Shown piece by piece: positions 12,197 through 48,190 of a stretch of DNA of 64,000 nt. Each line of letters opens with the position of its first letter. The stretch's first letter is position 1. The notes under the pieces were generated by a model. The model was not told the DNA's origin. It saw nothing but the letters and a program-made list of their open reading frames with translations, and made no database searches. Made by a program: the position numbers and the translations under genes. Origin of the DNA: Chloroflexota bacterium (GTDB lineage Bacteria; Chloroflexota; UBA11872); the NCBI GenBank assembly GCA_022824865.1, contig JAJDZD010000022.1:36115-100114 (forward strand), in the 5' to 3' direction.

Positions 12197-13066
12197 CTAG
12201 CCGACGAGGGCTTTCTCCTTCTCGATCTGCTCGTGTTCCTCGAGCCAGACCTTGAGGGGCACGTCGGCGTCGGAGGGTGAGGAGCGTCCGAATTCGTTGG
12301 TAGAGTGGCCCATCATCTGCTTGAGGATGGGGTGCGACTCGTCGTACCACTCCTGCGGGTATTCCATGTCGTCGCGGGTGCGAATCCAGCGATAGCCGTA
12401 GCCGTAGAACAGCACCCGGCGAGTCACGTCGGAGAAGTTTGGCGTGGCGGCGTGCCAGATGCGGCGGTCGAAGATGACGGCCGTGCCGGCCTTGACCTTG
12501 ACGGGGATGGCACCTTCGGGCTGGACGTCGCCTTCGCCGGGCTCGGGGAGGGTGTTGGAGAGCTGACTGCCCGGGACGACCCAGAAGTTGCCCATGCCTT
12601 CGTTGCTGACGTCGGTGAGGAAGTAGCCGACCTTGAGTGAAATGCGCGGGCGCGGGCTGGTTTCCATGTCCCGGTTCATCTGGCCGGAGTCCTGGTGCCA
12701 GCCCCAGGCGCGCTCGGACGGATCGTAGGTTCCTGGTTCCCTGCCAGTGACGGCCAGATGGGTGTGGTAGAGGTAGACGTTCCAGCCGAGGATGCCCCAG
12801 ACCTTGGGCAGCAGGCGCTCGTAGGCGACCATGTCGAAGAACGAGCGGTCAAGATGCACGAAGCCCAGCTTGTTGATGCGCTGGGTGATGGTCTTGTCGG
12901 TGCGCCCGCCTTCCAGGACGCCACTTTCGTAAAGGTCGTCGATGGTCTCAATCAGGGACTCGCGCAGGTCCTCGGGAACAGCGTCTTCGACGACCAGGAA
13001 GCCGTCGCGCTCGAACGATTCGCGCTCGTCGTCGGTCAGGGCGTATTGGAGACAACTGGGATCCAT
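12197..13066 (-). CDS. phytanoyl-CoA dioxygenase (PhyH) family Fe(II)/2-oxoglutarate oxygenase
   Basis: Carries the WHQDSG (HxD) ... IWHAATPN (His) facial triad. GAGGA lies 6 nt upstream of ATG 13066. The longer ORF to 13129 has a poor N-terminus. Confidence 0.8.
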   Translation of the reverse strand: MDPSCLQYALTDDERESFERDGFLVVEDAVPEDLRESLIETIDDLYESGVLEGGRTDKTITQRINKLGFVHLDRSFFDMVAYERLLPKVWGILGWNVYLYHTHLAVTGREPGTYDPSERAWGWHQDSGQMNRDMETSPRPRISLKVGYFLTDVSNEGMGNFWVVPGSQLSNTLPEPGEGDVQPEGAIPVKVKAGTAVIFDRRIWHAATPNFSDVTRRVLFYGYGYRWIRTRDDMEYPQEWYDESHPILKQMMGHSTNEFGRSSPSDADVPLKVWLEEHEQIEKEKALVG

Positions 13067-13150
13067 GTCCGTCCTCGATCCGTCCGGGTGCGGCGCTTCA
13101 GTATAGAAATAGCGGGGGCGGGCGGTCACCTGGCAGGGTTGCCGCCGCCC

Positions 13151-13635: not shown

Positions 13636-13739
13636 TTCGAGCGTGCGACGCCGAAGAGATGTCCGTCAACGGCTGGACGGACCGCACGGGGCCGTCCGCC
13701 GCAGCATGAAGATCGGGCGGCGGGCCGGGATTCGTCAGT

Positions 13740-15566
13740 GTGCGCCCGGCGCTGCCACAATCGGATGACACTCGCAGCGGGAGGGACGCGGTGCGGTACA
13801 TAGCCGTCCTGGCCCGTCGCGAGGTCCTTTTTGGGGCGTTGGCCGGGTTGCTGGCGGGGGTCGTGTTCGCGCTGGCGATGCAGGCCGAGCAGATGCGCGT
13901 GGAGGTGACCGGGCTAGCCGGGGTGTCGACCTCCGGCGCCGGGCTGGTTGTGCACCTGGTGCTTGCAACGCTGATTGGCGCTGTTGTTGGCATGCAGTAC
14001 CGGCACGAACCGGGGAGCTATGCGGCGCAGATCACGCTGGGCGTCACGTTCGGGCTGTTGGGCTGGATCCTGGGGCCGCTGACGATTCGTCCGCTGGCGG
14101 AAGGACAGATTCCCGACTGGTCCATCGCGGTGGCGTCGGCCGGGTTTCCCAGCCTGATGGGGCACATGCTGTACGGGGCGCTGACCATCGGCGGCCTGTA
14201 CTGGGCCGTGGACCGCTGGGGAGGCGGCGCCGTGCTGGCACGCCCGAGCGAACGCGCGGCGGATCGCGTGCAGCGGATCGTGGTGCTGGGCGGCGGGTTC
14301 GGCGGGATGAGCGCAGCGCAGACGCTGGAGCGGATGACGCGAAAGCGGCGTGACCTGGACGTGACGCTGGTGAGCCAGAGCAACTTCCTGCTGTTCACGC
14401 CGATGCTGGCCGAGGTGGCTTCGGGCGCGCTGGAAGCGCAGCACATTGCGGCGCCGATTCGCGCGGCCTGCCCGTTCACCAACTTCATTCACGGCGACGT
14501 AGAGCGAATCGACAGCGAGCAGCGGCAGGTGCTAGTGCATGGGCGGCGCTCGGCGGAGCCGCAGGCGGTGCCCTACGACCACCTGGTGCTGGCGATGGGG
14601 TCGGTGCCGAACTTCTACGGCCTGCCGGGCCTGGCCGAGCACGCGATCACGCTGAAGACGCTGGAAGACGCGGTGGGCCTGCGGCACCGGGTGCTGTCGC
14701 AGTTGGAGCGCGCCGACCATGAGACGGACGCGGAGGTTCGACAGCGGCTGCTGACGTTTGTGGTGGCGGGCGGCGGGTTTGCCGGCGCGGAGACGATTGC
14801 CGAACTGTTCGACCTGGTGTCGAGCGTTCGCCGCTACTACCAGCATCTGCGACCGGGGGACGCGCGATTCGTGCTGGTGCATTCGCGCGACCGCATCCTG
14901 CCGGAACTTAGCGCGGAACTGGGCGAGTACGCGCTGGAGAAGCTAAGCGCGCGGGGGATCGAGTTTCGACTGGGGCGCCGGGTAGCGGCAGCGGCCGAGG
15001 GGTCGGTGACGCTGGACGACGATACGGTGATCGCCTGCGGGACGTTCGTCTGGACGGCTGGGAACCAGCCGAACCCGTTGCTGGGAACCATGGACTGTGA
15101 GACGAACCGGTCGGGCCAGATCGTGGTGGACGCCACGCTGGGGGTGCAGGACAGGCCGGGGCTGTGGGCCGTGGGCGACGGCGCGCAGATTCCGGATCTC
15201 ACCAACGAGGGTCGGCCCTGTCCGCCGACAGCCCAGCACGCGCTGCGCCAGGGTAAGCGGGTGGCCCTGAACATCCTGGCGATGATCGATGGCCGGGCGT
15301 TGAAGCCATTCCGATACCGGGCGACCGGATCACTGGTGGGGCTCGGGCACCGGACGGCGGCCGCGGAAATCTGGGGTCGCAAGTTCTCCGGGCTGCTGGC
15401 CTGGTTCATGTGGCGGACGATCTATCTGAGCAAGCTGCCGGGCCTGGAACGCAAGTCGCGCGTGGCGCTGGACTGGGCGCTGGACCTGGTGTTTCCGCGA
15501 GACATCGTGCTGACGACGGCGACCGACGGCCGATTCGGATCCGACCACCCGGAGCGCGAGTCATGA
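13740..15566 (+). CDS. type II NADH dehydrogenase (NDH-2) with a fused N-terminal ~180-aa 4-TM domain
   Basis: The C-terminal ~430 aa are NDH-2 (VVLGGGFGGM...VVAGGGFAGAE...AVGDGA). The N-terminal region has a GLLGWILGPLTIRPL...DWS...FPSLMGHMLYG domain homologous to the repeats in the downstream gene. The exact start is uncertain. Confidence 0.8.
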   Translation: MRPALPQSDDTRSGRDAVRYIAVLARREVLFGALAGLLAGVVFALAMQAEQMRVEVTGLAGVSTSGAGLVVHLVLATLIGAVVGMQYRHEPGSYAAQITLGVTFGLLGWILGPLTIRPLAEGQIPDWSIAVASAGFPSLMGHMLYGALTIGGLYWAVDRWGGGAVLARPSERAADRVQRIVVLGGGFGGMSAAQTLERMTRKRRDLDVTLVSQSNFLLFTPMLAEVASGALEAQHIAAPIRAACPFTNFIHGDVERIDSEQRQVLVHGRRSAEPQAVPYDHLVLAMGSVPNFYGLPGLAEHAITLKTLEDAVGLRHRVLSQLERADHETDAEVRQRLLTFVVAGGGFAGAETIAELFDLVSSVRRYYQHLRPGDARFVLVHSRDRILPELSAELGEYALEKLSARGIEFRLGRRVAAAAEGSVTLDDDTVIACGTFVWTAGNQPNPLLGTMDCETNRSGQIVVDATLGVQDRPGLWAVGDGAQIPDLTNEGRPCPPTAQHALRQGKRVALNILAMIDGRALKPFRYRATGSLVGLGHRTAAAEIWGRKFSGLLAWFMWRTIYLSKLPGLERKSRVALDWALDLVFPRDIVLTTATDGRFGSDHPERES

Positions 15567-17107
15567 CGCGGCGCAACGACCTGATTGCGTGGCTGCTGGC
15601 CGGCGCGGTGGCCGGGCAGGTTGGCGGGGTGGTCTACGGCCTGGTGATGCGGCACCTGGGCGTCATTGAGTCCATTGCCGCGCTGGTCCGGCTGCCTCCG
15701 TCGGCGGTGGGCGGGTGGGTCGTGCACATGATCGTGGCGGGCGTCATCGGCGCGGGGTTTGCGGCGTTGATCCGCCGACAGGAGCACAGCGCGGGCGACC
15801 TGCTGTTCTGGGGTCTGATCTACGGGGCGGTGTGGTGGATCATCGGACCGCTGACGCTGGCGCCATTGCTGATTCGCCGCGAGGCGCTGGCGTGGGATCT
15901 GACCTCGGCACAGGAGACCTTTCCGATGCTGCTGGGTCACCTGCAGTACGGCGTGACGACCAGCCTGGCCCTGCTGGTGTGGCGGCGGTCAGCCTTCGAG
16001 CGGCCAACGGTTGGATGCGCGGTGCGAGGCGTCCTGGCGGGGGTGGTCGCCGCCGGGCTGACCGGGAAGGCGCTGGTTGACCAGGGGTTGCTTGGCCACT
16101 TTGTCGGAATCGGCGATCACGCCCCCTCTGCCTCGCTGTGGTTAGGAGTACTTGCGACCGGTGCGGTGAGCGGATTGGCGTTCGCGGCGGTGGTGCCCAC
16201 GGTGCGCGATAGCGCGGGCGCAGCGCTGGTGCGGGGGGTGGTGTTTGGCTTCCTGGCCTGGATCCTGGTGCCGATGACGATCGTCGGGCTGGCCACCAGG
16301 GGCATGCTGCCGTGGGGGATGGGTTTCGCGCACGACGCCTTTCCCGGACTTCTGGCCTACCTGCTCTACGGCGGAATCCTGGGCCTGGCGTACCAGTGGC
16401 TGAGCGTGGCGTGGCGAGTGCTGTTCGCCGAGACGACGACGGACGAGGATGAGGGTTACGGCACGGAGGGGCTGCGGGCGCTCGGCCGCGGATCTGCGGC
16501 GGGAATCGCGGGTGGTCTGCTGTACACCGTGATGCTGGCGCGGCTCGGCTCGTTCGAGGGCATCGCCCAGCTGATGCGGGCCGACAACGCAGCCGTCGGA
16601 GTGCTGGTGCACGCCCTTGTCTCCGTGATCTGGGGCGCGGTTTATGGCCTGCTGTTTCGGCGGCAGACGTACGGGATCGGGTCGGCGGTGGGCTGGGGCG
16701 TCGCGTTCGGGTTCTTTATCTGGGTGGTTGGACCGAACACCCTATTCGCCGTGCTGACGGGGCAGACGCCGGACTGGTCGGCGGACAGCACGGCGCCGCG
16801 GACGGCTTCGCTGGTTGGCCACCTGGTGTACGGGGCGGTCCTGGGGGTGGGATTCCACTACTTCGAGTCGCGTCACAACCCCTGGTGGCAGCCGCGCCGC
16901 GAGCGGCTGGAAGCTCGCGCGGATCAACGCCGGCGGCAGTTGCAAACGTCCGCGCCGGCGATCTGGGCGCTGGTGATGCTGGTTGCGCTCACGCTGCCGA
17001 TTATCTTCGGCGGGTCCGACGAGATGGGACGCAACGCCATGAGGGCGGAGTCCACCTCGAGCGAGGAACGCGGGCCGCCGATGGATGACATGCAGCCGAT
17101 GCGGTGA
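15563..17107 (+). CDS. integral membrane protein made of three tandem ~130-150-aa repeats of an uncharacterised 4-TM domain
   Basis: The ATG overlaps the NDH-2 TGA (ATGA). Each repeat carries G..YGLVM...W..GP.T..PL....DW......FP.LLGHL.YG. The same domain forms the N-terminus of NDH-2. Confidence 0.65.
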   Translation: MTRRNDLIAWLLAGAVAGQVGGVVYGLVMRHLGVIESIAALVRLPPSAVGGWVVHMIVAGVIGAGFAALIRRQEHSAGDLLFWGLIYGAVWWIIGPLTLAPLLIRREALAWDLTSAQETFPMLLGHLQYGVTTSLALLVWRRSAFERPTVGCAVRGVLAGVVAAGLTGKALVDQGLLGHFVGIGDHAPSASLWLGVLATGAVSGLAFAAVVPTVRDSAGAALVRGVVFGFLAWILVPMTIVGLATRGMLPWGMGFAHDAFPGLLAYLLYGGILGLAYQWLSVAWRVLFAETTTDEDEGYGTEGLRALGRGSAAGIAGGLLYTVMLARLGSFEGIAQLMRADNAAVGVLVHALVSVIWGAVYGLLFRRQTYGIGSAVGWGVAFGFFIWVVGPNTLFAVLTGQTPDWSADSTAPRTASLVGHLVYGAVLGVGFHYFESRHNPWWQPRRERLEARADQRRRQLQTSAPAIWALVMLVALTLPIIFGGSDEMGRNAMRAESTSSEERGPPMDDMQPMR

Positions 17108-20065: not shown

Positions 20066-20440
20066 ATGTCGCTCGAAGCCATCGCGACGAAGCTCGATCA
20101 GGGAATCGCGGAGTTGCGCGCCGGAACGTTGCAGGAGTCCACGCTCGCGGCCATTCGGGAGGAACTGAGGTCCGCGCGCAACGCGCGACAGGATCTGCTG
20201 TACGTGCAAGCGGCCGGTACGGCGCTGGACACCCAGGTGATTGGCATGCGCATGGTCACCGACGGTGAACTCTCGGACGGCGCGGACGATCCCGACGACT
20301 GGCCGTACCAGACGGTCCTGGATGCGATCCGCGACGGCTGGCGCATCATCGAGTTTCCCAATCTCGCCCTGCTGCTCGACGAGTCCCGAACCTACGCCTA
20401 CGGTGCCGAGTTCGTACTCGAGAAGATTCGGAGCGCCTGA
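20066..20440 (+). CDS. small conserved hypothetical protein, partner of PhyH (paralog of 40456-40740)
   Basis: 124 aa. The stop overlaps the PhyH start (TGATG). It shares DG.L...PY..VLDA.RDGWR....EF.LE with the ORF at 40456. The upstream part of the six-frame ORF is antisense to the dehydrogenase gene and was trimmed. Confidence 0.5.
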   Translation: MSLEAIATKLDQGIAELRAGTLQESTLAAIREELRSARNARQDLLYVQAAGTALDTQVIGMRMVTDGELSDGADDPDDWPYQTVLDAIRDGWRIIEFPNLALLLDESRTYAYGAEFVLEKIRSA

Positions 20441-21276
20441 TGGACGCCTCGCACATCGCGCCCACGCTGAGGGACACCCAGGTCCTCGACTTCTGCAAGC
20501 GCGGCTACCTCCTGCTCGACGGCGTCGTGCCCGAGGAGATCAACCGCAAGACGGTCGACTTCGTCGACAACAACCCCTCCCTCGAGCCGACCGACATCCT
20601 GGCCGAGGACTGGTTTGTCGAGAACGTCATCCTCAATCCCGCGGCCGCCGGCGCCATACGCTCGCTGCTGGGTGCGGGGTTCGAGACCCCGGTGCTGATG
20701 AGCAACCACCGCGTGCACATGCCGGCGCCGGCGCAAGGCTGGCATCGTGACGGCGGGTCGCGCTATGGGCCTACGCTGCACTACTTGCAGGTCTTCTATT
20801 ACCCCGAGGCCTGCACGGCTGACATGGGGCCCACCGAGGTGCTCCCGGGCTCGCACTTCCTGTTTCAGCACTCCAGCATGATGGGGCACTACGGAAACCT
20901 GCGGCACGGTGTCAAAACCGTCGCATCCGCCGGCTCGATATTCCTGACCGTCTACTCCATCTGGCACCGTCGTTCCGTGTCGACGGCGCGGGGGACTCGC
21001 AACCTCCTGAAGTACAACTACTGGCGCACGGCGCCGCCGACCCGCGACTGGGTGATTGAGCCGGACTTCGACTTTGCCCTGGCCGACTACACGTTCACGC
21101 GGCGAGGGATGCGGCAGCAGTTCCGGGACACCGTGGATGCGGCCGAGATGTTCTACTGGCTGTGCGGCAAGGCCGGCGAGTACCGAACGATGGGCGGTCA
21201 GGGCTGGCCCATGCCGGGTCACCGCAACGCATCGCCCAGGGGCTTTCCCGGGGAGCCAACTTCAGCCACCTATTGA
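20440..21276 (+). CDS. phytanoyl-CoA dioxygenase (PhyH) family oxygenase
   Basis: WHRDGG (HxD) ... IWHRRS (His). Confidence 0.8.
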   Translation: MDASHIAPTLRDTQVLDFCKRGYLLLDGVVPEEINRKTVDFVDNNPSLEPTDILAEDWFVENVILNPAAAGAIRSLLGAGFETPVLMSNHRVHMPAPAQGWHRDGGSRYGPTLHYLQVFYYPEACTADMGPTEVLPGSHFLFQHSSMMGHYGNLRHGVKTVASAGSIFLTVYSIWHRRSVSTARGTRNLLKYNYWRTAPPTRDWVIEPDFDFALADYTFTRRGMRQQFRDTVDAAEMFYWLCGKAGEYRTMGGQGWPMPGHRNASPRGFPGEPTSATY

Positions 21277-21324: not shown

Positions 21325-22158
21325 TTACGTGGACGCGGCCGGGAGATACTCGCGGAGATAGCGGACCCCGAGGGGGATTACCTCGATGGGATCGTCGCGG
21401 CCTTCGTAGACCAGGCTGATCCAGCCGTTGTAACGAACCCCGCGGATGGTCTGGAAGATGGTGTCGTAGTCCAGCGACTCTTCCCGGCCCGTGGCGATGC
21501 GGTAGAGCTTGGCGCGGACGGCGGTGGCCAGCGGCGCCGTGAGGGCAATGCTGTTCAGGTAGTCGTGGCGCTCACGCTGCTCGTCGGCGGCGAAGCCCGA
21601 GGCGCCGGGGGACCCGGCGTACTGGCCGGTGTCGAGCACGTGGCCCAGGTTGGGATGGTCGACCTGGCGGATCAGGCGCAGCACGTCTTCGCCGTCGGGG
21701 GCAATCTGCTTGTGATTGTGGTTCTGCAGGGAAACCACGACGCCTACCTCGGCGCCAAACTCGGCACATTCGCGCAGCGCGTCGGCGCAGCGGTCCCAGG
21801 AGGCGGCGCGGTCTTCTTCAGTGGCAGGGCTACCGCTGAACACGCGAACCTGCGGCGCGCCGAACAGAGCCGCACGTTCGATCCAGGTCTTGGTGCGCTG
21901 GACGTCGGCGGCCAGGTCGTCAGCGGGGCGGGCGAAGTTGTTGGAAATGGCGATGCAGGGGATATCCAGACCGCGGTCCAGACACTCGCGCTTGACGGCG
22001 AGCAGTGAGGTCCGGTCCACCGCCGGAAACGCGGAGTCGTGCAGGTCTACGCCCTCCACGCTCAGTTCGCGACAGGTGTCCAGGAAGCTCATCAGGTCCA
22101 TCCGGCCATCGTCGAAGGCCTGACGGTAAGACAGGGTGAGGATGCTGAGCCTCAGCAT
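21325..22158 (-). CDS. sugar phosphate isomerase/epimerase (xylose-isomerase-like TIM barrel)
   Basis: VSLQNHNH, HVLDTGQ and WISLVYEG motifs are typical of the AP-endonuclease-2 / xylose-isomerase-like family. Confidence 0.75.
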   Translation of the reverse strand: MLRLSILTLSYRQAFDDGRMDLMSFLDTCRELSVEGVDLHDSAFPAVDRTSLLAVKRECLDRGLDIPCIAISNNFARPADDLAADVQRTKTWIERAALFGAPQVRVFSGSPATEEDRAASWDRCADALRECAEFGAEVGVVVSLQNHNHKQIAPDGEDVLRLIRQVDHPNLGHVLDTGQYAGSPGASGFAADEQRERHDYLNSIALTAPLATAVRAKLYRIATGREESLDYDTIFQTIRGVRYNGWISLVYEGRDDPIEVIPLGVRYLREYLPAAST

Positions 22159-22323: not shown

Positions 22324-22584
22324 TCATTCAGAACGAGCCAGAATCCCGCCCTGTAAGTTGTATGCCGCCGGAAAGCCAACACGCTCCGCCCAGGTGATGG
22401 CATCCGGTCGCCGCTCCATCAGCCGCATCGTTGCCGTCACGTCGTCGGAATCGACCTCAAAGTCCCCGCTGCGTATGTCGATCACGACGAAGTCGCCCTT
22501 CGCCGTCCCGCGGGTCAGGTCGCGGATTTTCGTCAGATACAACTCCTTGCCCCGCGACGCCACGCTCTCCTCACCGATAGGCAT
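22324..22584 (-). CDS. small hypothetical protein (~87 aa)
   Basis: The internal Met start MPIGEESVASRGKELYLTKIRDL...GDFVVIDIRSGDFEVDSDD has protein-like composition. No family assigned. Confidence 0.35.
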   Translation of the reverse strand: MPIGEESVASRGKELYLTKIRDLTRGTAKGDFVVIDIRSGDFEVDSDDVTATMRLMERRPDAITWAERVGFPAAYNLQGGILARSE

Positions 22585-22738
22585 CAGGGGCTCTCCTTTG
22601 GCCGAGTGCCAACACGAACCCGGCACAGCGGCTCGATCGCATTCAGGCCGGAAGTCTCCAGAACTCTAGCAATGCACCGCTTCATGTGGCCTCGCAGCCA
22701 CACCGCTGCCTATTGGAGCCGGGCAGGACTTGCCTCGG

Positions 22739-23754: not shown

Positions 23755-23839
23755 TAGAGCGAATGCTACGCCGCCTGCGCGCTGCGCGGGCAATCGGTGA
23801 CAATGCGATGAGCCCGTACCAGCCGGAAAGCCCCGCAGG

Positions 23840-25585
23840 ATGCTGAACAAGGCGGCCGCCGAATTGCTGGAGGGCTTTGCCGACGCGCTGGAGATTCGGG
23901 GGGCCAATACGTTTCGGGTGCGGGCGTTTCGGAACGCGGCGCGGCGGGTGGACTCGCTGACCACGGACGTGGCGGAACTGGTCGAGAGCGGTGAGATCTC
24001 CAAGGTGCGCGGGATTGGCAAGGGCATCGCGGGGGTGCTGGGCGAGTTCGTAGAAAAGGGCCGCGTGGACGAGTACGAGGAGATGCGGGCGGAGATTCCC
24101 GACAGCGTCTTCGAGATGCTGCTGATTCCGGGGCTGGGTCCCAAGACGGCCGCGACGCTGTACAACAAGCACGGGATCGACAGCGTGGACGCGCTGGAGG
24201 AAGCGGCCCGCGAAGGGCGGCTGGCGGGTATCCGCACGATTGGCGCCAAGCGCCAAGCGCGGCTGTTGCGGGAACTGGGCCGGTTTCGAGAGCGGATTGC
24301 GCGGCGGCGGCTGGGCGACGTGCTGCCGATCGCGGAGCGGCTGATCGCGCACGTGGAGGCGGCGCCGGGGGTTCAGACCGTGCAGTACGCGGGCAGCCTG
24401 CGACGGGGTCGGGAGACGATCGGCGACCTGGACATCCTGGCGGCCGCCGACGAACCCGGACCGGTGATGGAGCACTTTGTGGCCGCCGACGATGTGGAAG
24501 AGGTCGTGGGTACCGGCGGGACCAAGACGGCAGTCCTGGTGGGCGGCGGGTTCCAGGTGGACTTGCTGGTGGTGGCGCCGGACGAGTTTGGGGCAGCGCT
24601 GGCGTATTTCACGGGATCGAAGGAACACAACATCGAGATCCGGGCGCGGGCGCTACAACGGGGGTTGTCGCTGAACGAGCGGGGGTTCCTGGACTCGGAA
24701 AGCGGGCAGCGACGTCCGGCGGCGACCGAGCAGGATGTCTATGCGGCGGTTGGACTGCCCTGGATTGACCCGGCGCTGCGCGAGAACCGGGGCGAGATCG
24801 AGGCGGCCGAGGCGGGGGCGCTGCCGGACCTGATCGAGCTTGGCGACATCAAGGGCGAGTTGCACGGGCACTCGCTGTGGAGCGACGGAGCGGGGTCAAT
24901 CGCCCAGATGGTCGATGCCGCCAGGCGGCGCGGATTGGCCTACTTTGCGGTGACCGACCACTCGGGCAGTCTGCCGGTGGCCAACGGCCTGAGTCAGGAG
25001 CGGCTGGCGGAGCAGGCTGAGGAGGTCGCGCGGGAGCGGGGAGCGTCGCAGGACGTACGCGTGCTGCACGGCAGCGAAGTGGAAATCCTGGCCGACGGCA
25101 GCCTGGACTTCAGCGACCAGATCCTGGCCGCGCTGGACGTGGTGGTGGCCTCGATTCACAGCAATTTCAACCAGCCGCCGGAGCAGATGACGGAACGGCT
25201 GATCGCGGCGATCGAGAACCCGCACGTGGACATCATCGGGCACCCAACCGGACGCATGTTGGGGCTGCGGGACGGCTATACGTTTGACGTGGAAGCGGTG
25301 CTGAAGGCTGCGGCCGCCACCGGCACCGCGCTGGAGATTAACGCGGCGCCGGAACGCCTGGATCTTGATGACACGACCGCCCGCCGGGCTGCTGAACTGG
25401 GCGTCCCAATCTCGATCAACAGCGACGCCCATCACCCCGCTAGCCTGGCCTATATGCGCTATGGGGTGCTGACGGCGCGTCGGGCCTGGCTGCGGGCCGA
25501 AGATGTGATCAACGCGCTGTTGCTGGACGACCTGCTGGCCTGGCTGGCGCAGCCAAAGCCGCGGCGTTGGAAGGCTGGGGCGTAG
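23840..25585 (+). CDS. polX: family X DNA polymerase (PolX) with a C-terminal PHP phosphoesterase domain
   Basis: N-terminal HhH (GIGKGIAG), a pol-beta-like nucleotidyltransferase core (GSLRRGRETIGDLDIL), and a PHP domain (HGHSLWSDG...VTDH...HPTGR). Confidence 0.85.
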   Translation: MLNKAAAELLEGFADALEIRGANTFRVRAFRNAARRVDSLTTDVAELVESGEISKVRGIGKGIAGVLGEFVEKGRVDEYEEMRAEIPDSVFEMLLIPGLGPKTAATLYNKHGIDSVDALEEAAREGRLAGIRTIGAKRQARLLRELGRFRERIARRRLGDVLPIAERLIAHVEAAPGVQTVQYAGSLRRGRETIGDLDILAAADEPGPVMEHFVAADDVEEVVGTGGTKTAVLVGGGFQVDLLVVAPDEFGAALAYFTGSKEHNIEIRARALQRGLSLNERGFLDSESGQRRPAATEQDVYAAVGLPWIDPALRENRGEIEAAEAGALPDLIELGDIKGELHGHSLWSDGAGSIAQMVDAARRRGLAYFAVTDHSGSLPVANGLSQERLAEQAEEVARERGASQDVRVLHGSEVEILADGSLDFSDQILAALDVVVASIHSNFNQPPEQMTERLIAAIENPHVDIIGHPTGRMLGLRDGYTFDVEAVLKAAAATGTALEINAAPERLDLDDTTARRAAELGVPISINSDAHHPASLAYMRYGVLTARRAWLRAEDVINALLLDDLLAWLAQPKPRRWKAGA

Positions 25586-25591
25586 CTTGCG

Positions 25592-26923
25592 ATGACTGCG
25601 ACAGTCGGGACGCCCACCACAGCTGCCGGCGGAATCGCCCAGAACCGAGTTAGGCATGAAGACCGGGCGGTGCATGACTGGTACCGGTTCGTCCTGTCAT
25701 TCCCGCCACACCTGGTCCAGACATACGTCGAGCGCTTTGGCCTGAATTCATCCAGCACGGTGCTCGATCCGTTCTGCGGAACCGGAACAACCCTGGTGGA
25801 GTGCAAGAAACTCGGCATCCCGAGCGTGGGACTCGAGCCGAACCCTATGGCGCATTTCGCGAGTGCGGTGAAGGTCAACTGGAATGTTGAACCCGCGGAA
25901 CTTGAGGCGTACGCGCGAGCAGTGGCCGGGATAGCCCGGAAAACCATCGAGGACGGGAGCGTCGATCAATGGGCGGGGCTACCGCTCCTGGCCGGAAACG
26001 GGGATTCACAGGTTCTGTTGCGAGCGCTCTCTCCTGAACAGACGCGGCTGTTGCTGAAAGACTCGATAAGTCCGTTGCCGCTGCACAAGACGCTGGTGCT
26101 GCTGGAGGCCATCGAGAGCCACGGCAACCGACATTTGCAGCGGTCTGGGCGGCTGGCGCTTGCCAACGCGCTGGTACGGCGCATCGGCAACTTGAAGTTC
26201 GGTCCCGAAGTCGGGGTCGGCCAGATCAAGGACGACGCTCCCGCGATCGAGTCCTGGACTGAGGGCATGCGGGCAATGGCCGATGACATACGTTCCGTTC
26301 AAGGACAGACCAGCGTTCCGGCCAGAGCACTCAAGGGGGACGCTCGGCAGGCCGATGAGGTCTTGGAGCCCCAGTCGATCGACGCCGTCATTACGTCGCC
26401 GCCATATCCCAACGAGAAGGACTACACGCGAACGACGCGACTTGAGTCCGTGATTCTCGGGCTGATCCGTGATCGCCCTGAACTGCGCGAACTCAAGCAA
26501 AGCCTGGTTCGGTCAAACACCCGGGGCGTTTACAAGGCCGATACGGACGATCAGGCGGTGGCCGACCACGCGGTGATTCGCAACATTGCCGAGACTATTG
26601 AGCAACGCCGGATCGAGTTGGGCAAGACGTCCGGCTTCGAACGCCTGTATCCGCGAGTCACGCAACTCTACTTTGGCGGCATGGCGCGGCACTTAGCCAG
26701 CCTGCGGTCGGTACTTCGGCCGGGCGCCAGGCTGGCGTATGTGGTCGGTGATCAGGCGTCGTACCTGCGAGTCATGATCCGCACGGGACAAATCCTTGCG
26801 GATCTGGCCCAATCGCTGGGCTATCGGGTTTCCGGCATCGACCTCTTCCGAACAAGGCCTTCGACCGTTACGGGCGATCAGCTTCGGGAGGAAGTCGTGT
26901 TGCTGGAATGGCCAGACAACTGA
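25592..26923 (+). CDS. DNA methyltransferase (N6-adenine / N4-cytosine type, motif I before motif IV)
   Basis: DPFCGTGTT (AdoMet motif I) near residue 60 and SPPY (motif IV) near residue 262. GC content is somewhat lower than in the neighbouring genes. Confidence 0.85.
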   Translation: MTATVGTPTTAAGGIAQNRVRHEDRAVHDWYRFVLSFPPHLVQTYVERFGLNSSSTVLDPFCGTGTTLVECKKLGIPSVGLEPNPMAHFASAVKVNWNVEPAELEAYARAVAGIARKTIEDGSVDQWAGLPLLAGNGDSQVLLRALSPEQTRLLLKDSISPLPLHKTLVLLEAIESHGNRHLQRSGRLALANALVRRIGNLKFGPEVGVGQIKDDAPAIESWTEGMRAMADDIRSVQGQTSVPARALKGDARQADEVLEPQSIDAVITSPPYPNEKDYTRTTRLESVILGLIRDRPELRELKQSLVRSNTRGVYKADTDDQAVADHAVIRNIAETIEQRRIELGKTSGFERLYPRVTQLYFGGMARHLASLRSVLRPGARLAYVVGDQASYLRVMIRTGQILADLAQSLGYRVSGIDLFRTRPSTVTGDQLREEVVLLEWPDN

Positions 26924-35220: not shown

Positions 35221-35919
35221 GGCTAGCCGCCGCTTCTCTTCCGCCGCCCCTACACCGACCGCCCCTTCCAGCGCACCTGGCCGATGGTCTTGTCGGTTCA
35301 CGTCCAGAGCACCGGCGGCCTGATGCGGCGTCAGGCCGCTCTTGCGGCAGCAAGCTCAGCGTCTGCTTCGCCAATCAATCTGAAGTACGCCGTAAAGGCT
35401 CCTCGTGCAGCGTCGAACAGCCCGGCGTCACCAGACTTCAAGGCGGATGCAATGGAGAGTTTCGCGCCCAGCGCGGCTTCAATTGCCTCGGAATAGAGTT
35501 GGTGAATTCGTAGCGACGGCGGTCCGCGAGAACCTCGCAGCCGTAGGACAACCTGGTCTCCATTGACTTCTGGCTGGGGCGGATGAGTCTTCGCAGACGC
35601 GGTCAATCCCGTGGTGGCGAATCAGCTGGCCTGGAAGGACAAACGGAAGGCGGTCACCTCGCCCACCATCTCGCCGCAGTTGCCAGCGACGGCGGCGATT
35701 TCCACGACCGGGAAGTCGCAGGTCCTGCAGGCGTACGGGAGCTGTCGGTCGGGGAGGAATTGGCGGTGCCATTCAGCGGCGTTCGGACTACTTCGAATGC
35801 TGACGTCGGGTCGTCCCCGGCACCAGTTGGTCGCCGCATTGGCGGGCAGGGCGGAAAAAGCACCGGCACGGCAAGGCAAAACCGGCTTTTGGCTACCAGG
35901 ACTGACCCATGTCCTCGGG

Positions 35920-35990
35920 AGGCGACGCTGGGAATCGAACCCAGGATAGGGGTTTTGCAGACCCCCGCCTTACCACTTGGCTACGTCGCC
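35920..35990 (-). tRNA. tRNA-Cys (GCA)
   Basis: The minus-strand sequence GGCGACGTAGCCAAGTGGTAAGGCGGGGGTCTGCAAAACCCCTATCCTGGGTTCGATTCCCAGCGTCGCC folds as a cloverleaf with a 7-bp acceptor stem. The anticodon loop is CUGCAAA, giving GCA. CCA is not encoded. Confidence 0.85.
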
Positions 35991-36073: not shown

Positions 36074-37300
36074 CTAGCCGACCGCGGCGCGCTGCACCAC
36101 GCGCCATCTTTGATCGGCGGTACGCGCGAGGAAAAAGCCGACATCCTGGCTCAGAGGTCCGCGCTGAATAGTCTCACCGTCCGCCCTGCGTCGAGTTGCC
36201 AGGTTTCCGGACTCGCGAACCAGAACCGCGGCATTCTCGCCATCAATCCTGGCGTCAATAGCCTGAATCGAAACATCGCTTTCCAGGTACACCCCGCTGG
36301 CGCGTAGTTGCTGGACCCGTGCTTCGATCTCCTGTGCCACGGCTTCGTCGTACACCGAACGCAGCGCACTTGAGTCGAGCGACTGATAGGCCTCGAACTC
36401 AAGCCGCGCGGCTCGCACGGCCGTGTCGGTCGCCCGGTCCAGGCTGGCCGCCTCGGCATCCTGCCGTCCGCGCACCACGAAGACCGCGATCAGCACGGCA
36501 AATAGCGCCGCCAACATGAAGCCTGTCCGAATCAGACGCAGGCGCCTCGCCTCGGCCTGCTCAAAGGCCTCCGTTTCAGCGAACGACTGCTCGTGGGACT
36601 CGATGTTTGAGCGAATCGTCGTAGGGATCGGTTCGGGGTCACGCCGCCGCCCGGAACTCACATCCCATATGTCGGGATTGTCGACCCGCCCGGCGTCGCC
36701 TTCGTCGTGCGGTGAGGGCATGTCATCGACGTTTGAGCGCAGGACCTCACCGTCCTCCGGACGAAACTCGGACTCGGCCTCGTCCGGCAAGTCGGCCGGG
36801 GGCGCCACACGCAGAGATATGAAGCGTCCGTGCGCGGCCTGTTCGCTGTGCTTGAACCGCACGGCCTGCCCGAGCGTCCAACGGCCTTCCAGCAGGAGCG
36901 TCAGGTCGCGGCCGTCCAGCAGCGCCAGCTCTCTGGCCCACTCGGCGTCCACGGCCATCTGCAGCGGGAAGCCCTGGACGACGATCAGGATGTCGACCTG
37001 GCGCTCAAGCGCCGCCTCGGCCAGCGCCGCGTGATCGTCGCAATCAAACCACAGCGCGATTCGACGCCGCACACGTTCCAGGCGCACTGCGCCTTCTATG
37101 TGGTCACCCATCTGAGCAAGCGGCCCGAGCGGTTCGGCATCGGACGCCATGGCCAGCGCTTCGACCACGTTGGCCAGCTTGGCCAGGCGGTCGGCCTCGT
37201 CGGTCAGCGCTTCGTTGAAGAGCTCGGCATGCGCGGCCAGAACCCGACGCCGACGCGCGCCGGCGTCGCCGCCCGCTGTCGAGTCATTCGTGGGTGACAT
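36074..37300 (-). CDS. hypothetical protein with a central acidic region and one TM helix
   Basis: 408 aa with protein-like composition and the TM segment LIRTGFMLAALFAVLIAVFVV. No confident family. Confidence 0.5.
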   Translation of the reverse strand: MSPTNDSTAGGDAGARRRRVLAAHAELFNEALTDEADRLAKLANVVEALAMASDAEPLGPLAQMGDHIEGAVRLERVRRRIALWFDCDDHAALAEAALERQVDILIVVQGFPLQMAVDAEWARELALLDGRDLTLLLEGRWTLGQAVRFKHSEQAAHGRFISLRVAPPADLPDEAESEFRPEDGEVLRSNVDDMPSPHDEGDAGRVDNPDIWDVSSGRRRDPEPIPTTIRSNIESHEQSFAETEAFEQAEARRLRLIRTGFMLAALFAVLIAVFVVRGRQDAEAASLDRATDTAVRAARLEFEAYQSLDSSALRSVYDEAVAQEIEARVQQLRASGVYLESDVSIQAIDARIDGENAAVLVRESGNLATRRRADGETIQRGPLSQDVGFFLARTADQRWRVVQRAAVG

Positions 37301-37407
37301 AGACGTTAGGTGAGACCGCGACGCACCGCCCTCGCACGGTGCTTCCTAGTTTCATCGTACGACAAGCGGCCGCTCAACTCATCGGGGCCTTTGCTTTTTC
37401 GCTGCAT

Positions 37408-39586: not shown

Positions 39587-40351
39587 CTAGGCCGCCCGGT
39601 TCCTTTTCTGGCCGCGCACCATCAGCCCGTCTCGCCCCAGTCCCTGGCCCGACGACTGAACGTTGTCCGGGTCGCGGTAGCCGAACCTGACGAGGCGCCG
39701 CCATTGGTCCGTGCGGTTGGGCGCCGAACCATGGATGGTGTAGTAGCTGAAGAACACCACGTCGCCGGCGTCGGCCGGAACCGACACGGCGTCCTCCAGG
39801 CGGTACTGGTCCGTGGGCAAGTGCGGGCTCGATTCGGGGCCGCGTATGTGCTGGAGCGGCCCCAACTTGTGGCTGCCTTCAAGAAATTGTAGGCAGCCGT
39901 TTTCTTCGCTTGCCGTATCGATATGCACAATCGCGTCCACGTAGGCGGGACCCTCGTGCGCGTAGAACGGATGGTCCTGGTGCATGGGAAACGGCGTCCC
40001 CATGTCCGGGGCCTTGGCGTGCAGCGTGGTGTGGTGCAGCTCGACGTCCGGCCCGATCAAATCGGCCACGGCGCCGGTGAGCCGGTCGTTAACGACCGCC
40101 CGCGCGAAGGCCTCGGAGTAGTTCTGCAGCTCGTGCATGGCCGTCAGGCGGGCGCGCTCGTCCTCTTCGGCGGTCATGTACGCCTTGCGCCAGGGGCCGC
40201 GCCAGCCCGGGGTCTGCTGCGCCCATTCCAGCATCAGCCGCTCGAGTTCGACGGACTGAAACTCGACCTCGTCGGGCGAGAAGACGTTCTCCAGTCGCAG
40301 GTAGCCGCGCTCGTTGTAGAACGTGACCTGCTCTTCGGTCAGGGTGAACAT
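39587..40351 (-). CDS. phytanoyl-CoA dioxygenase (PhyH) family oxygenase
   Basis: MHQDHPFY (HxD) ... YTIHGSAPN. Confidence 0.8.
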   Translation of the reverse strand: MFTLTEEQVTFYNERGYLRLENVFSPDEVEFQSVELERLMLEWAQQTPGWRGPWRKAYMTAEEDERARLTAMHELQNYSEAFARAVVNDRLTGAVADLIGPDVELHHTTLHAKAPDMGTPFPMHQDHPFYAHEGPAYVDAIVHIDTASEENGCLQFLEGSHKLGPLQHIRGPESSPHLPTDQYRLEDAVSVPADAGDVVFFSYYTIHGSAPNRTDQWRRLVRFGYRDPDNVQSSGQGLGRDGLMVRGQKRNRAA

Positions 40352-40784: not shown

Positions 40785-41654
40785 ATGGCGATCGCAGAAA
40801 CCGAGGTCGTGGCGCAGAGCGAACTCCTGGACGTGCACCAGATGGCGCGGTTCGTCATCGATGGCTTCATTGAGTTCGACGACTTGATCCCCGACGAATT
40901 GAGCGAGGCCGTCCACGCCGACGAACTGGCATCGGTTAACGACGAGGGCCCCATTCCCGAGGTGCGCTGGCACATCACGGACAACCCGCACGGGTTCTAC
41001 GAACGCTCCGCCGCCGTGCGCGCCGTGCACAACCTGCCGCGCGTGAAGGCCGTGCTGCAGAGCCTGCTCGGCCCCGGGCATGTCGCCAGCCACTCGGCGC
41101 TGCACTGCACCGGGCCGCGCCAGGAGACGGCGCAGCAGTGGCACGTGGACGCCGGCGGTCGGCGCCAGGTGCGGTTGCCGGGCGTGCACCCCTGGTCGTT
41201 CGACATCCTCACGGCCTACTTCGCCCACGACACCCCGCACGAGATGGGTCCCACGCTGGTGCTGCCCGGCTCGCACATGCGCTCGGTGCTCGGTCCCGAC
41301 GTGGCCCGCTACAAGAACATCGCCGGCCAGAAGCGCCTTTCAGGCAAGGCCGGACGCATTGTCTTCATGCACGAGGCGCTGTGGCACTGCGCCCAGACCA
41401 ACGAGATCGACCAGTGGCGGTTCATGTTCAAGATTCGCTACAACCCTCGGGTCCCCCAGCGCGGCATCTTCAACGCCGACGGCTGGGACAGCGAGGAGAT
41501 CCGGCGCTACTTCCGCATGAACAAGAACGCCCACAACCTCACCGGCGAATCCTCGGCCGTCGCCCAGGAACGCGCCGACTGGTGGCGCTACCTCTGCGGC
41601 GCGGACGAACTGGCCGACCCGAGTGGGACCGGGGCGCACGGGGACTACGCCTAG
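40785..41654 (+). CDS. phytanoyl-CoA dioxygenase (PhyH)-like oxygenase
   Basis: WHVDAGG (HxD) ... LWHCAQTN. Confidence 0.7.
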   Translation: MAIAETEVVAQSELLDVHQMARFVIDGFIEFDDLIPDELSEAVHADELASVNDEGPIPEVRWHITDNPHGFYERSAAVRAVHNLPRVKAVLQSLLGPGHVASHSALHCTGPRQETAQQWHVDAGGRRQVRLPGVHPWSFDILTAYFAHDTPHEMGPTLVLPGSHMRSVLGPDVARYKNIAGQKRLSGKAGRIVFMHEALWHCAQTNEIDQWRFMFKIRYNPRVPQRGIFNADGWDSEEIRRYFRMNKNAHNLTGESSAVAQERADWWRYLCGADELADPSGTGAHGDYA

Positions 41655-44312: not shown

Positions 44313-44350
44313 GCGAGTCAGGCGACGCCTTCAAGCTGAAGATTGTTGGG

Positions 44351-44424
44351 CGACCCCGAGAGGACTCGAACCTCCGGCCTTGTGGTCCGCAACCACACGC
44401 TCTGTCCAACTGAGCTACGGGGTC
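44351..44424 (-). tRNA. tRNA-Arg (anticodon reads GCG)
   Basis: The minus-strand sequence GACCCCGTAGCTCAGTTGGACAGAGCGTGTGGTTGCGGACCACAAGGCCGGAGGTTCGAGTCCTCTCGGGGTCG folds as a cloverleaf with anticodon loop UUGCGGA. It resembles tRNA-Arg(ACG) apart from position 34. Confidence 0.8.
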
Positions 44425-44462
44425 AGGAAAAATCAGTCTAGCAATGGGTTGCCGCTGCGGGA

Positions 44463-47292: not shown

Positions 47293-48092
47293 GCGCTGTC
47301 CCAGCGTCGCGGGCTGATGCCCGGGGCGCTGGTTCGCGGATCGATAGGCGGCATGCCCGGCTCGGCGTGCGTGGCCCGCTGGTTGCGGTCGCCGCACAGC
47401 TCGAGGACAGCGGGCGGGAGACTCGCCAGGACTTCGTCCGGCCACGGTTCCAGGTCCTGAACGGTCGGTCCGCACCAGGCCGGGCGGTACGACAGCGCGA
47501 TCATTTCGCGCGCCCGGCTGCCCGTGTTCGGCCCGTTGGCGTGGAACAACGCCAGGTTGATCACCACGGCCGTGCCCGCCGGCGCGGTGATGACAACCTC
47601 GTCGGGATGCGAGGGGTAGCGCTTGTAGGGGTTGGCGTCCGGGTGCATGGACAGGTGCGACCGTGGAATCACCCGCAACGGCGCAACCTCCGTCGTCAGG
47701 TCATCCAGGTAGTACAGCACCCGCACCTGCCGCGGCGCGCTGAAGGCGTAGCCCCAGTCGCTGGTCCCGTAGGGGTGGGAGTCGGTGTGCAGGTTCATGC
47801 CCGGATGCCCCGGCGCCGAGATGGCGTAGTGCGCATGCATGAACACCAGGTCAGGCCCCAGCGCCGCCCGCAGAAAACCGATCACCGGCGGGTGCGCGAT
47901 CAGATCCGTCACCGCCCCGCCAGCAAACTGCACGTCCGACTGCGTGCGCTGATGCTGGCTGTAGTGCACGGGCGTCGGATCCCAGGCCGCCGCCTGCGCC
48001 TTGAGTTGTGCCACGGTTTCAGCATCGAGCGTGGCGGGCAGCACGACGTAGCCCTCGACCTCCAGGCTGCGGATGCGCTGGCCGGTACTCAA
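47289..48092 (-). CDS. phytanoyl-CoA dioxygenase (PhyH) family oxygenase
   Basis: LHTDSHP (HxD) ... LFHANGPN. Confidence 0.75.
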   Translation of the reverse strand: MSTGQRIRSLEVEGYVVLPATLDAETVAQLKAQAAAWDPTPVHYSQHQRTQSDVQFAGGAVTDLIAHPPVIGFLRAALGPDLVFMHAHYAISAPGHPGMNLHTDSHPYGTSDWGYAFSAPRQVRVLYYLDDLTTEVAPLRVIPRSHLSMHPDANPYKRYPSHPDEVVITAPAGTAVVINLALFHANGPNTGSRAREMIALSYRPAWCGPTVQDLEPWPDEVLASLPPAVLELCGDRNQRATHAEPGMPPIDPRTSAPGISPRRWDSA

Positions 48093-48190
48093 TTCGGCCT
48101 AGGCCTGTTGATCTGCCAGCGGTTTGGCGCTCACTGCACGTCCTTGCTACGGGCGGGCAAGTAGGACCAGGGTAGGTATTCCAAGGGTCC

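Follow-up and report, generated by a model that had tools for sequence, protein, structure and literature searches.

A conserved small protein co-encoded with a subclade of bacterial PhyH-type oxygenases as a candidate second enzyme component

Two of the PhyH-family oxygenase genes in a 64,000-nucleotide stretch of DNA from a Chloroflexota bacterium (here called the window) are each preceded by a gene for a small protein. The same arrangement is found in hundreds of bacteria across many phyla and, judged from sequence, suggests that an enzyme class normally regarded as acting alone also has a two-protein form that had not been described. The small genes are real, they are homologous between the two cassettes, and they are co-conserved and have co-diverged with one subclade of the oxygenases, to which they are usually translationally coupled. 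From this pattern we infer a physical complex of the two proteins, a noncatalytic role for the small one, and a class of substrate. The initial annotation had proposed that the small open reading frames (ORFs) encode a conserved, unrecognized partner of the PhyH class, and this proposal is supported by homologs, by adjacency, by coding status, and by the lack of a name in curated libraries.

Two cassettes among five PhyH genes

All five of the genes that had been described as PhyH-family Fe(II)/2OG oxygenase genes within about 36 kb match the Pfam family PF05721 (Table 1), the match of oxA being borderline against a gathering score of 22 bits. The small ORFs (124 and 94 amino acids) said to precede the oxygenases at 20440 and 40785 on the same strand are both present, and the TGATG overlap reported for one pair was found at positions 20438 to 20442, where the stop and start codons of cassette A overlap. 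In cassette B, a 44-nt spacer separates the small gene from oxB and holds its own GGAAGGGG ribosome-binding site. Both cassettes are isolated operons in the window, with flanking genes on the opposite strand, and the canonical PhyH gene divergent from cassette B shares with it a 104-bp intergenic region. A search of the six-frame translation of the window with the family HMM found exactly two copies of the small gene, those at 20066 and 40456, and none for the other three PhyH genes.

Table 1. Features of the window discussed in the text
Feature	Positions	Strand	Evidence
Small partner protein A-type, 124 aa	20066-20440	+	ORF, codon-position GC, dN/dS, homologs
Partner oxygenase A-type (oxA), 278 aa, divergent PhyH family	20440-21276	+	PF05721, 22.8 bits
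Xylose-isomerase-like TIM-barrel protein (AP_endonuc_2), convergent with cassette A, context only	21325-22158	-	PF01261, 104 bits
Small partner protein B-type, 94 aa	40456-40740	+	ORF, codon-position GC, dN/dS, homologs
Partner oxygenase B-type (oxB), 289 aa, PhyH family	40785-41654	+	PF05721, 34 bits
Canonical PhyH oxygenase, 254 aa	39587-40351	-	PF05721, 125.5 bits
PhyH paralog without small partner, context only	12197-13150	-	PF05721, 75.7 bits
PhyH paralog without small partner, context only	47289-48098	-	PF05721, 66.3 bits

The small ORFs are protein coding. GC content by codon position is of the coding type in both (0.67/0.44/0.82 in small A and 0.71/0.46/0.89 in small B), and dN/dS values against close orthologs (0.04 to 0.21 for small A and 0.02 to 0.12 for small B) indicate purifying selection. 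The motif that they were said to share is likewise real and beyond chance: BLASTP aligned the two proteins across the PY..VLDA.RDGWR core (E = 3e-8), and profile-profile comparison with hhalign gave a probability of 98.6% and an E value of 7e-16 over 94 columns. The spacing written as "DG.L....PY" is not literal, however, since 10 residues separate the DG.L and PY motifs in A and 15 in B. Small A consists of two N-terminal helices and a beta-rich core with the motifs RQ..L.L, PY..VL.A..DGW, and E..LE, whereas small B is the core domain alone. The description of a duplicated cassette does not hold in the sense of a recent duplication: the oxygenases of the two cassettes are 25% identical, and because the small proteins are homologous yet only 23% identical, A and B are two anciently diverged paralogous cassettes. 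Each has its own orthologs in other phyla.

Pairing across bacteria

Homologs exist well outside this genome. Word-indexed searches returned 314 for small A, all named "hypothetical," and 194 for small B, including proteins from Paenibacillus and Ktedonobacter. Clustering of the family at 50% identity gives 437 clusters, which come from ten or more phyla, and its members keep their length in genomes of 41 to 66% GC. Some database entries have miscalled longer starts (e.g., P0001, at 191 amino acids).

Co-conservation with PhyH genes was also borne out, an oxygenase of the matching subclade adjoining the small gene at nearly all loci. An oxA ortholog is present in 73 of 80 species-level genome loci of the A type, mostly directly downstream of the small gene and in some loci one gene further on, with a canonical PhyH gene inserted between; five of the other seven have a different PhyH gene within two genes. 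At B-type loci the oxygenase lies directly downstream in all 76 metagenome loci with room. The pair is present in the cultured species Paenibacillus humicola and Ktedonobacter robiniae and in L170, a Logan-assembled contig whose small protein is named by NCBI for Paenibacillus sp. P26. Stop and start codons overlap in 92 of 149 pairs (62%), and gaps of 0 to 30 nt occur in a further 31. Gene order is inverted, with a 4-nt overlap, in L084 and on a Streptomyces plasmid, and the two genes are divergent in L065; adjacency thus outlasts both order inversion and gene insertion. When plasmids were searched with oxA or oxB, a single record was found, and the small gene is present on it. There are exceptions to the pairing: in L171 the small gene lies beside an HpcH/HpaI aldolase gene with no PhyH gene within 7 kb, and in L032 and L087 an RraA-like aldolase gene stands between the small gene and a PhyH gene. 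A comparison of rate covariation between the small protein and oxA with that for seven neighbor genes, across 22 Caldilineaceae loci, gave no specific signal (partial r = 0.07).

The partner oxygenases appear from their sequences to have an intact 2-His-1-carboxylate iron site and 2OG-binding arginine. H102, D104, H176, and R187 are invariant in 130 of 130 aligned members of the clade, as is a G.T...PGSH motif, and the 2OG-binding arginine sits 11 residues past the second histidine of the HxD...H triad; the corresponding WHRDG/WHVDAG and WHRR/WHCA motifs are visible in both partner oxygenases of the window. The oxA branch is highly divergent, and most of its members have no precomputed Pfam match (the A-type ortholog in L084 scores 27.6 bits against PF05721). 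The oxA orthologs beside a small gene are 47 to 96% identical to oxA of the window, and oxB is 39 to 43% identical to the Paenibacillus and Ktedonobacter partners. Partner oxygenases of the A and B types are each other's closest relatives, with about 30% identity and E values of 1e-17 to 1e-20, whereas the other PhyH genes of the window match them only at 1e-4 to 1e-11. The same A/B split is seen in the small proteins, which argues that the pair diverged as a unit.

A canonical PhyH protein is a recurrent further member of these loci, being inserted, fused, or upstream. Planctomycetota encode a 353-amino-acid fusion of PhyH and the small domain (75 to 100% identity), found on at least 24 contigs from independent samples and followed by an oxA ortholog. 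The small domain is joined here to the different, canonical PhyH and not to oxA, an arrangement equally compatible with a scaffold or shared partner and with a simple heterodimer. In the AF2 model of one such fusion, P0269 (pLDDT 57 and pTM 0.38 for the whole model), the small domain is the sole confident part (pLDDT 93), and the PhyH part is essentially unfolded because the alignment held only about 5 PhyH rows. The canonical PhyH at 39587-40351 is a possible third component of cassette B.

Neighbors of the pair differ between lineages, with the exception of an AraC-type regulator found next to about 20 pairs of the B type (divergently upstream in L003, L004, and L170 and in 17 metagenome loci). 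Genes for a sugar ABC transporter, an SDR, and GH43 lie near the Paenibacillus pair; IolG-like, IolE-like, iolD, and iolB genes lie near the Streptomyces pair; and BKACE, Zn-ADH, amidohydrolase, and TPP-enzyme genes lie near the Caldilineaceae pairs. AP_endonuc_2 genes are a recurrent neighbor type, being found also in L002, L003, L169, L171, and L172. Other readings of the region were discarded: there was no PADLOC match to suggest a defense system, Rfam gave two tRNAs only and no riboswitch, and consensus scans for promoters and terminators gave nothing above shuffle expectation.

The small protein and its possible roles

The small partner had been described as unrecognized, and no curated library names it: neither small protein of the window has a match in Pfam-A, NCBIfam, or PADLOC, and 58 members of the family have no consistent Pfam family. 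Profile searches of PDB sequences gave no credible match (best E value 0.59 with the A1 profile and none with the A2 profile). AF2 modeled small A (pLDDT 84) as a beta-rich protein of five to six strands and short helices, with a loop of low confidence at residues 101 to 110 (pLDDT 56). No match of this model to solved folds was found, and the predicted fold appears to be new. The family is conserved along its full length to the C terminus (EF.LE[KR]), with no variable core. Its invariant alignment columns are Q, L, A, D, G, W, and L, and R41, Q42, P80, Y81, D90, W92, E115, and E119 (A numbering) are invariant or nearly so; no column is an invariant Ser, Cys, Lys, or His. Model and alignment together show what is probably a folded protein with no sign of a cofactor.

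Several known kinds of small protein were considered and set aside. A covalent substrate carrier, one suggestion of the initial annotation, is disfavored, since no Ser, Cys, or Lys is invariant and the model is rich in beta strands where a carrier would be a helical bundle; an acyl or peptidyl carrier protein in particular would be a four-helix bundle with an invariant Ser, and no PF00550 match was obtained. A RiPP-like modified peptide, another suggestion, fares no better in view of the full-length conservation, the confident fold, and the missing variable core, and no conserved protease or export genes of the kind expected for a precursor of the NHLP/Nif11-leader type lie nearby. There was no PF03621 or structural match to MbtH-like proteins, and neither the winged-helix beta3-alpha3 fold nor the PF05402 match of a RiPP recognition element or PqqD-like partner was found. 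Nor is the protein a split-off piece of PhyH, hhalign giving a probability of at most 1.1% against the oxA/oxB and canonical PhyH alignments.

In our judgment the chances are about even that each cassette is a bicistronic operon for a two-component Fe(II)/2OG oxygenase, composed of a PhyH catalytic subunit and a noncatalytic small partner and serving sugar, cyclitol, or keto-acid catabolism. The catalytic component would be the PhyH-type subunit of the distinct subclade represented by oxA and oxB, and the second component would be a small protein, about 90 to 125 amino acids long, dedicated to that subunit, free of cofactors, and of an undescribed beta-rich fold; translational coupling would supply it in stoichiometric amounts. 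The small protein may bind the oxygenase as a noncatalytic subunit and either stabilize it or complete or gate its substrate site, with R41, Q42, Y81, D90, W92, E115, and E119 (A numbering) as a candidate interface or ligand-contact surface. The oxygenase most likely would hydroxylate or oxidatively dealkylate a small carbohydrate-, cyclitol-, or keto-acid-type nutrient. No literature on a bacterial 2OG-type pinitol demethylase was found, so an O-methyl-cyclitol substrate stays pure speculation.

The best surviving alternative, which we nevertheless consider unlikely, is that the small protein is an independent enzyme or ligand binder of the same pathway (a mutarotase, tautomerase, isomerase, or dehydratase) that is cotranscribed with the oxygenase without being its subunit. 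Sugar operons often include small stand-alone mutarotases and tautomerases, and the residues just listed look like those of a catalytic site or of one that binds a sugar or an acid; moreover, the small gene lies beside an aldolase gene and not directly beside a PhyH gene in L171, L032, and L087, and rate covariation showed no specific coupling to oxA. Such an enzyme would not be expected to keep to one oxygenase subclade while all other neighbors vary, to mirror its A/B split, to have overlapping stop and start codons in 62% of pairs, or to be fused to a PhyH domain in Planctomycetota, and the small protein has no fold or sequence match to a known small enzyme.

A less probable alternative is that the small protein is the substrate of the oxygenase and is hydroxylated, for example, at P80, D90, or W92 or in the flexible loop at residues 98 to 113. 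Protein hydroxylation by 2OG oxygenases, at Pro, Asp, Asn, Lys, and Arg residues, is documented (PMC4543633), and both the near invariance of P80, Y81, D90, and W92 and the low confidence of the 101-110 loop could be read in the same sense. The flexible loop differs between the A and B types, however, and the context is one of catabolism (transporters, dehydrogenases, aldolases, and AraC regulators) rather than of protein modification, with no conserved downstream user of a modified protein. Stoichiometric translational coupling would be wasteful for an enzyme and its substrate, and fusion of the substrate to a different PhyH is hard to rationalize.

Equally improbable is a regulatory role, whether as a posttranslational inhibitor or activator gating the oxygenase or as a co-sensor acting with the AraC-type regulator. 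The position of the AraC gene in many B-type loci would suit a co-sensor, and small cofactor-less effectors of the MmoB type control other oxygenases. On the other hand, the small protein has neither a DNA-binding fold nor that of a known sensor, the AraC gene is missing from A-type loci (cassette A of the window among them), and AraC-type proteins already carry their own ligand-binding cupin domain; the effector version overlaps largely with the two-component oxygenase proposed above. Finally, the idea that the small ORFs are chance ORFs or misannotations with a coincidental motif, to which the many spurious ORFs of GC-rich DNA and miscalled starts such as that of P0001 (191 amino acids) might lend color, is refuted by the coding-type codon-position GC, dN/dS values of 0.02 to 0.21, hundreds of homologs of conserved length in genomes of 41 to 66% GC, the confident AF2 fold, and the profile-profile E value of 7e-16.

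Known systems and significance

To our knowledge, characterized PhyH oxygenases work without a dedicated partner. The partner oxygenases described here resemble single-component members of the family (phytanoyl-CoA hydroxylase, the ectoine hydroxylase EctD, and PHYHD1/FJS) in their PF05721 match, HxD...H triad, and arginine, but differ in that genomes almost always encode a small protein alongside this one subclade, usually with translational coupling. For the role proposed here for that protein, the nearest parallel is found in MbtH-like proteins, which are cofactor-less, co-encoded proteins of about 70 amino acids with invariant Trp and Pro residues that much larger enzymes, those with NRPS adenylation domains, need for solubility or activity; the small protein is unrelated to them in sequence and fold, and the class of the partner enzyme also differs. 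MmoB, DmpM, and TmoD are cofactor-less alpha/beta proteins of 10 to 16 kDa, encoded in the oxygenase operon, that bind the hydroxylase and gate the access of substrate and O2, but they serve diiron enzymes rather than a mononuclear Fe/2OG enzyme, and no sequence or fold match to them was found. Carrier-dependent PhyH-like halogenases and hydroxylases (SyrB2/SyrB1 and CytC3/CytC2) are precedents for a 2OG enzyme whose substrate must be presented by a small protein encoded alongside it. The carriers in question fold as four-helix bundles and have an invariant Ser that is phosphopantetheinylated, whereas in the small family the fold is beta-rich and no Ser is invariant, and genes for adenylation or for a PPTase are absent from its neighborhood. 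In the alpha2beta2 collagen prolyl 4-hydroxylase, the catalytic subunit depends on noncatalytic PDI (beta) for solubility; that system is eukaryotic, and its partner is large, multifunctional, and without homology to the small protein. We found nothing relevant in the literature on a small partner of PhyH enzymes. Action of PhyH enzymes on sugar moieties, including oxidative O-demethylation, is documented, the PHYHD1/FJS enzymes being 2'-O-methyl-nucleoside demethylases, and the word "subunit" is absent from the main text of the FJS paper (PMC12709175).

The usual view of Fe(II)/2OG oxygenases is that one component suffices for activity, and genome annotation, enzyme discovery, and heterologous expression assume as much. 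More broadly, we suggest, tentatively and with somewhat less confidence than for the cassettes of the window, that a distinct bacterial PhyH clade is obligately two-component, its cofactor-less partner of about 90 amino acids, with a fold absent from the PDB, binding the catalytic subunit (and in some lineages also a second, canonical PhyH) and supplying part of the substrate site or gating catalysis; among bacterial 2OG oxygenases, no dedicated effector or specificity subunit would have been described before it. If this is true, oxygenases of the partnered clade may be insoluble or inactive when expressed alone, and a whole unannotated family of 437 clusters would gain a role. PhyH is the most expanded gene family in some sponge symbionts, with functions that are largely unknown (PMC3909097), and the pairing would provide a new protein family and a handle on such opaque PhyH expansions in sponge symbionts and soil bacteria. 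As a two-gene module with cultured representatives in Paenibacillus, Ktedonobacter, and Streptomyces, it opens one branch of the expansion to experiment.

Two small gene-oxygenase cassettes in the window

The initial annotation described five PhyH-family genes, two of them preceded on the same strand by a small ORF, and Pfam searches bore out all five at the positions it assigned, just as both small ORFs were present. The window has a GC content of 66%, and its nearest relatives are Chloroflexota metagenome-assembled genomes, several of them named in the style of sponge metagenomes. Since expanded PhyH families have been documented for sponge symbionts (PMC3909097), five paralogues in 36 kb are not in themselves surprising.

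Features of the window and the fusion gene found in other genomes
Feature	Coordinates	Strand	Basis or remark
PhyH-family gene	12197-13150	-	Pfam
NDH-2-type pyridine-nucleotide oxidoreductase ORF	13710-15566	+	
DUF6789/DUF1440-containing ORF	15257-17107	+	overlaps NDH-2-type ORF by ~310 nt as listed; true start probably further downstream
Small A, 124 aa	20066-20440	+	ORF directly before oxygenase, same strand
PhyH-family gene, cassette A oxygenase (oxA)	20440-21276	+	Pfam
100-aa ORF	22327-22626	-	no Pfam match
PolX-type DNA polymerase with PHP domain	23801-25585	+	
445-aa protein, directly after PolX-type gene	25586-26923	+	only a short stretch matches N6/N4 DNA methylase model, C-terminal part
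tRNA-Cys(GCA)	35918-35990	-	with tRNA-Arg, only Rfam/ARAGORN matches in window
423-aa ORF	36077-37345	-	no Pfam match; passes GC3 coding filter
PhyH-family gene, canonical, back-to-back with cassette B	39587-40351	-	Pfam, 125 bits
Small B, 94 aa	40456-40740	+	ORF before oxygenase, same strand
PhyH-family gene, cassette B oxygenase (oxB)	40785-41654	+	Pfam
tRNA-Arg(GCG)	44347-44425	-	
PhyH-family gene	47289-48098	-	Pfam
Fusion gene P0269	L005-L008 6001-7062		relatives P0438-P0440

In cassette A the stop codon of small A overlaps the oxygenase start, in the TGATG noted at the outset, and in cassette B a 44-nt gap precedes the oxygenase gene, which has a GGAAGGGG ribosome-binding site of its own. 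Because the genes on either side lie on the opposite strand, both cassettes are isolated two-gene units, cassette A lying between genes for a 3-hydroxyacyl-CoA dehydrogenase and an AP_endonuc_2 TIM-barrel protein, and cassette B between a molybdopterin oxidoreductase gene and a canonical PhyH gene. A 104-bp intergenic region separates cassette B from this canonical gene, an arrangement that echoes the second PhyH beside the small gene elsewhere.

The small ORFs are genes rather than non-coding stretches. GC by codon position is coding-like in small A (0.67/0.44/0.82) and small B (0.71/0.46/0.89), with no such periodicity 5' of the proposed small A start; dN/dS is 0.02 to 0.21 against orthologues 77 to 98% identical; and homologue length is constant (about 120 to 125 aa for A-type and 94 to 99 aa for B-type proteins). 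A family HMM run against the six-frame translation found exactly two copies in the window. The oxygenases, judged by their residues, look active: H102, D104, H176, and R187 are invariant in 130/130 aligned oxA/oxB sequences, as are K191 and, within the G.T...PGSH motif, G130, T132, P136, and H139, with G137 and S138 nearly so.

A small-protein family and its oxygenase neighbors

The small partner had not been recognized from sequence, and searches of Pfam, NCBIfam, and PADLOC likewise returned no match; 58 family members share no consistent Pfam family, neither profile found a credible PDB sequence match (best E 0.59 for A1, none for A2), and wherever a source database names a homologue the name is "hypothetical protein". 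The family extends well beyond the source genome. When 1.84 billion representatives were searched exhaustively with the profile, 437 clusters at 50% identity emerged, nearly all of them stand-alone proteins of 80 to 150 aa, and a pattern scan that took one genome for each species gave 391 loci. The A-type is represented in Chloroflexota (including Caldilineaceae and Dehalococcoidia), Latescibacterota, Poribacteria, Gemmatimonadota, Zixibacteria, Verrucomicrobiota, Planctomycetota, and Abditibacteriaceae; the B-type is found in Paenibacillus, Ktedonobacter, Armatimonadota, and numerous soil metagenomes; and one more member lies on a Streptomyces plasmid. Q42, L45, A87, D90, G91, W92, and L118 (A numbering) are invariant in both types, and R41, L47, P80, Y81, V84, L85, E115, and E119 nearly so; the alignment contains no invariant Ser, Cys, Lys, or His.

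The motif reported for both small ORFs reflects homology: the BLASTP alignment is confined to the 17-residue PY..VLDA.RDGWR core (E 3e-8), and the profile-profile alignment spans 94 columns (hhalign 98.6%, E 7e-16). The description of a duplicated cassette therefore holds as to paralogy but not as to recent duplication. The small proteins are 23% and the two window oxygenases 25% identical, and the two helices at the N-terminus of A-type proteins are missing from the B-type, so that these are two anciently diverged paralogous cassettes. The A- and B-type partner oxygenases are each other's nearest relatives (about 30% identity across loci, E 1e-17 to 1e-20), the window's other PhyH genes matching them at only E 1e-4 to 1e-11, and thus the small protein and its oxygenase diverged together. 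Across 22 Caldilineaceae loci the small protein changes at roughly twice the rate of its partner oxygenase (mean p-distance 0.23 versus 0.12), whereas in the clade of the window itself the two rates of divergence are similar.

Small homologues are co-conserved with PhyH genes. An oxA orthologue (47 to 96% identical to that of the window) is found at 73 of 80 A-type loci, immediately 3' of the small gene in about 48, separated from it by a 251-aa canonical PhyH gene (PhyH251) in about 23 Caldilineaceae-type loci, and upstream or divergent in two. The other seven comprise two with small gene and PhyH251, two with small gene, RraA-like aldolase, and PhyH (L032 4986-7439; L087 5464-8063), one with PhyH and then the small gene, one of poor sequence (L080), and one contig that ends too soon. 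The B-type oxygenase lies immediately 3' of the small gene at all 76 loci with room for it. Stop and start codons overlap in 92 of 149 pairs, mostly by -1, -4, or -8, and a further 31 have gaps of 0 to 30 nt. Adjacency survives inversion of gene order: in L084 oxA is followed by its stop, one codon, and the ATG that starts a small protein consisting of the core alone, and on the Streptomyces plasmid PhyH precedes the small gene with a 4-nt overlap. The clear exception is L171 (7001-8244), where the small gene sits beside an HpcH/HpaI aldolase gene with transposase genes around and no PhyH within 7 kb; L032 and L087 also depart from the pairing, in that their RraA-like aldolase gene takes the oxygenase's place after the small gene. 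In the reverse direction, a tblastn search of 72,556 plasmids with oxygenases of the oxB and oxA types retrieved a single record, in which the oxygenase gene is overlapped by a small-family gene (hhalign 99.3%).

Gene fusion and genomic context

The 353-aa protein P0269 joins a canonical PhyH domain (residues 13 to 209) to a small-family core (residues 265 to 352). Four full-length versions, 75 to 100% identical, occur in Planctomycetota, and the fusion gene is present on at least 24 contigs from independent samples. The next gene, which overlaps it at an ATGA, is an oxA orthologue sharing 57% identity with that of the window. The fused PhyH lies outside the oxA/oxB clade and is no orthologue of the inserted PhyH251 of Caldilineaceae, and a second, canonical PhyH has therefore been placed beside the small domain several times independently. 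Given this recurrent second PhyH, the small protein may serve two oxygenases.

A divergent AraC-type regulator gene often precedes B-type pairs, at 17 metagenome loci and in L003, L004, and L170 (a contig with the small protein listed for Paenibacillus sp. P26); in Paenibacillus the pair lies among sugar ABC transporter, SDR, AP_endonuc_2, and GH43 genes. In Caldilineaceae, a conserved cluster of about 10 genes (L002 1-10059 and about 22 loci, e.g., L045, L048, and L049) runs in the order ABC transporter, BKACE, AP_endonuc_2, Zn-ADH, Amidohydro_2, small protein, PhyH251, oxA, acetolactate-synthase/Xsc-like TPP enzyme, and NHL-repeat protein, and looks like an undescribed catabolic pathway. On the Streptomyces sp. 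NBC_00316 plasmid (NZ_CP108024.1, 238928-249689), the one context in which pathway genes have names, the pair lies between an HTH regulator gene and IolG-like/IolE-like genes, with iolD and iolB beyond, which hints at a cyclitol-related substrate. Other loci carry aldolase, enolase-superfamily, and Gfo/Idh/MocA genes. The neighbors point, weakly, to the breakdown of a compound of the carbohydrate, cyclitol, or keto-acid type, and no equivalog-level assignment resulted. PhyH-family enzymes were recently shown to demethylate a sugar hydroxyl oxidatively (PMC12709175), and the oxA/oxB reaction could possibly be analogous.

Role of the small partner

The small gene and the oxygenase gene very probably form one functional unit, a conclusion far more secure than any assignment of the small protein as a subunit. 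On the latter, the best-supported reading, which we put at about even chances, is that the pair is a two-component 2OG oxygenase, in which a dedicated, cofactor-less small subunit would be made stoichiometrically with the catalytic subunit and would bind it. The catalytic subunits are PhyH-family members; the small partner would be closest in function to MbtH-like proteins or diiron monooxygenase effector proteins, while belonging to neither. Neither a model of P0269, in which the PhyH part is poorly modelled, nor a rate-covariation test over the 22 Caldilineaceae loci gave evidence of physical interaction. It is less likely that the small protein acts on its own in the same pathway, as a small enzyme or a binding protein. 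We regard as improbable that this folded protein is itself the substrate of the oxygenase, and give equally little weight to a role as regulator or effector. Of the earlier suggestions, a covalent substrate carrier is not supported by the alignment (no invariant Ser) or the predicted fold, and a modified peptide of the RiPP-precursor type was not supported on test; nor were an RRE-like protein, an MbtH-like protein (Pfam and fold comparison), or a split-off PhyH fragment (hhalign). The novelty lies in the dedicated small partner, whose family carries no annotation, has no fold relatives that could be detected, and is inherited together with a single oxygenase subclade in many phyla.
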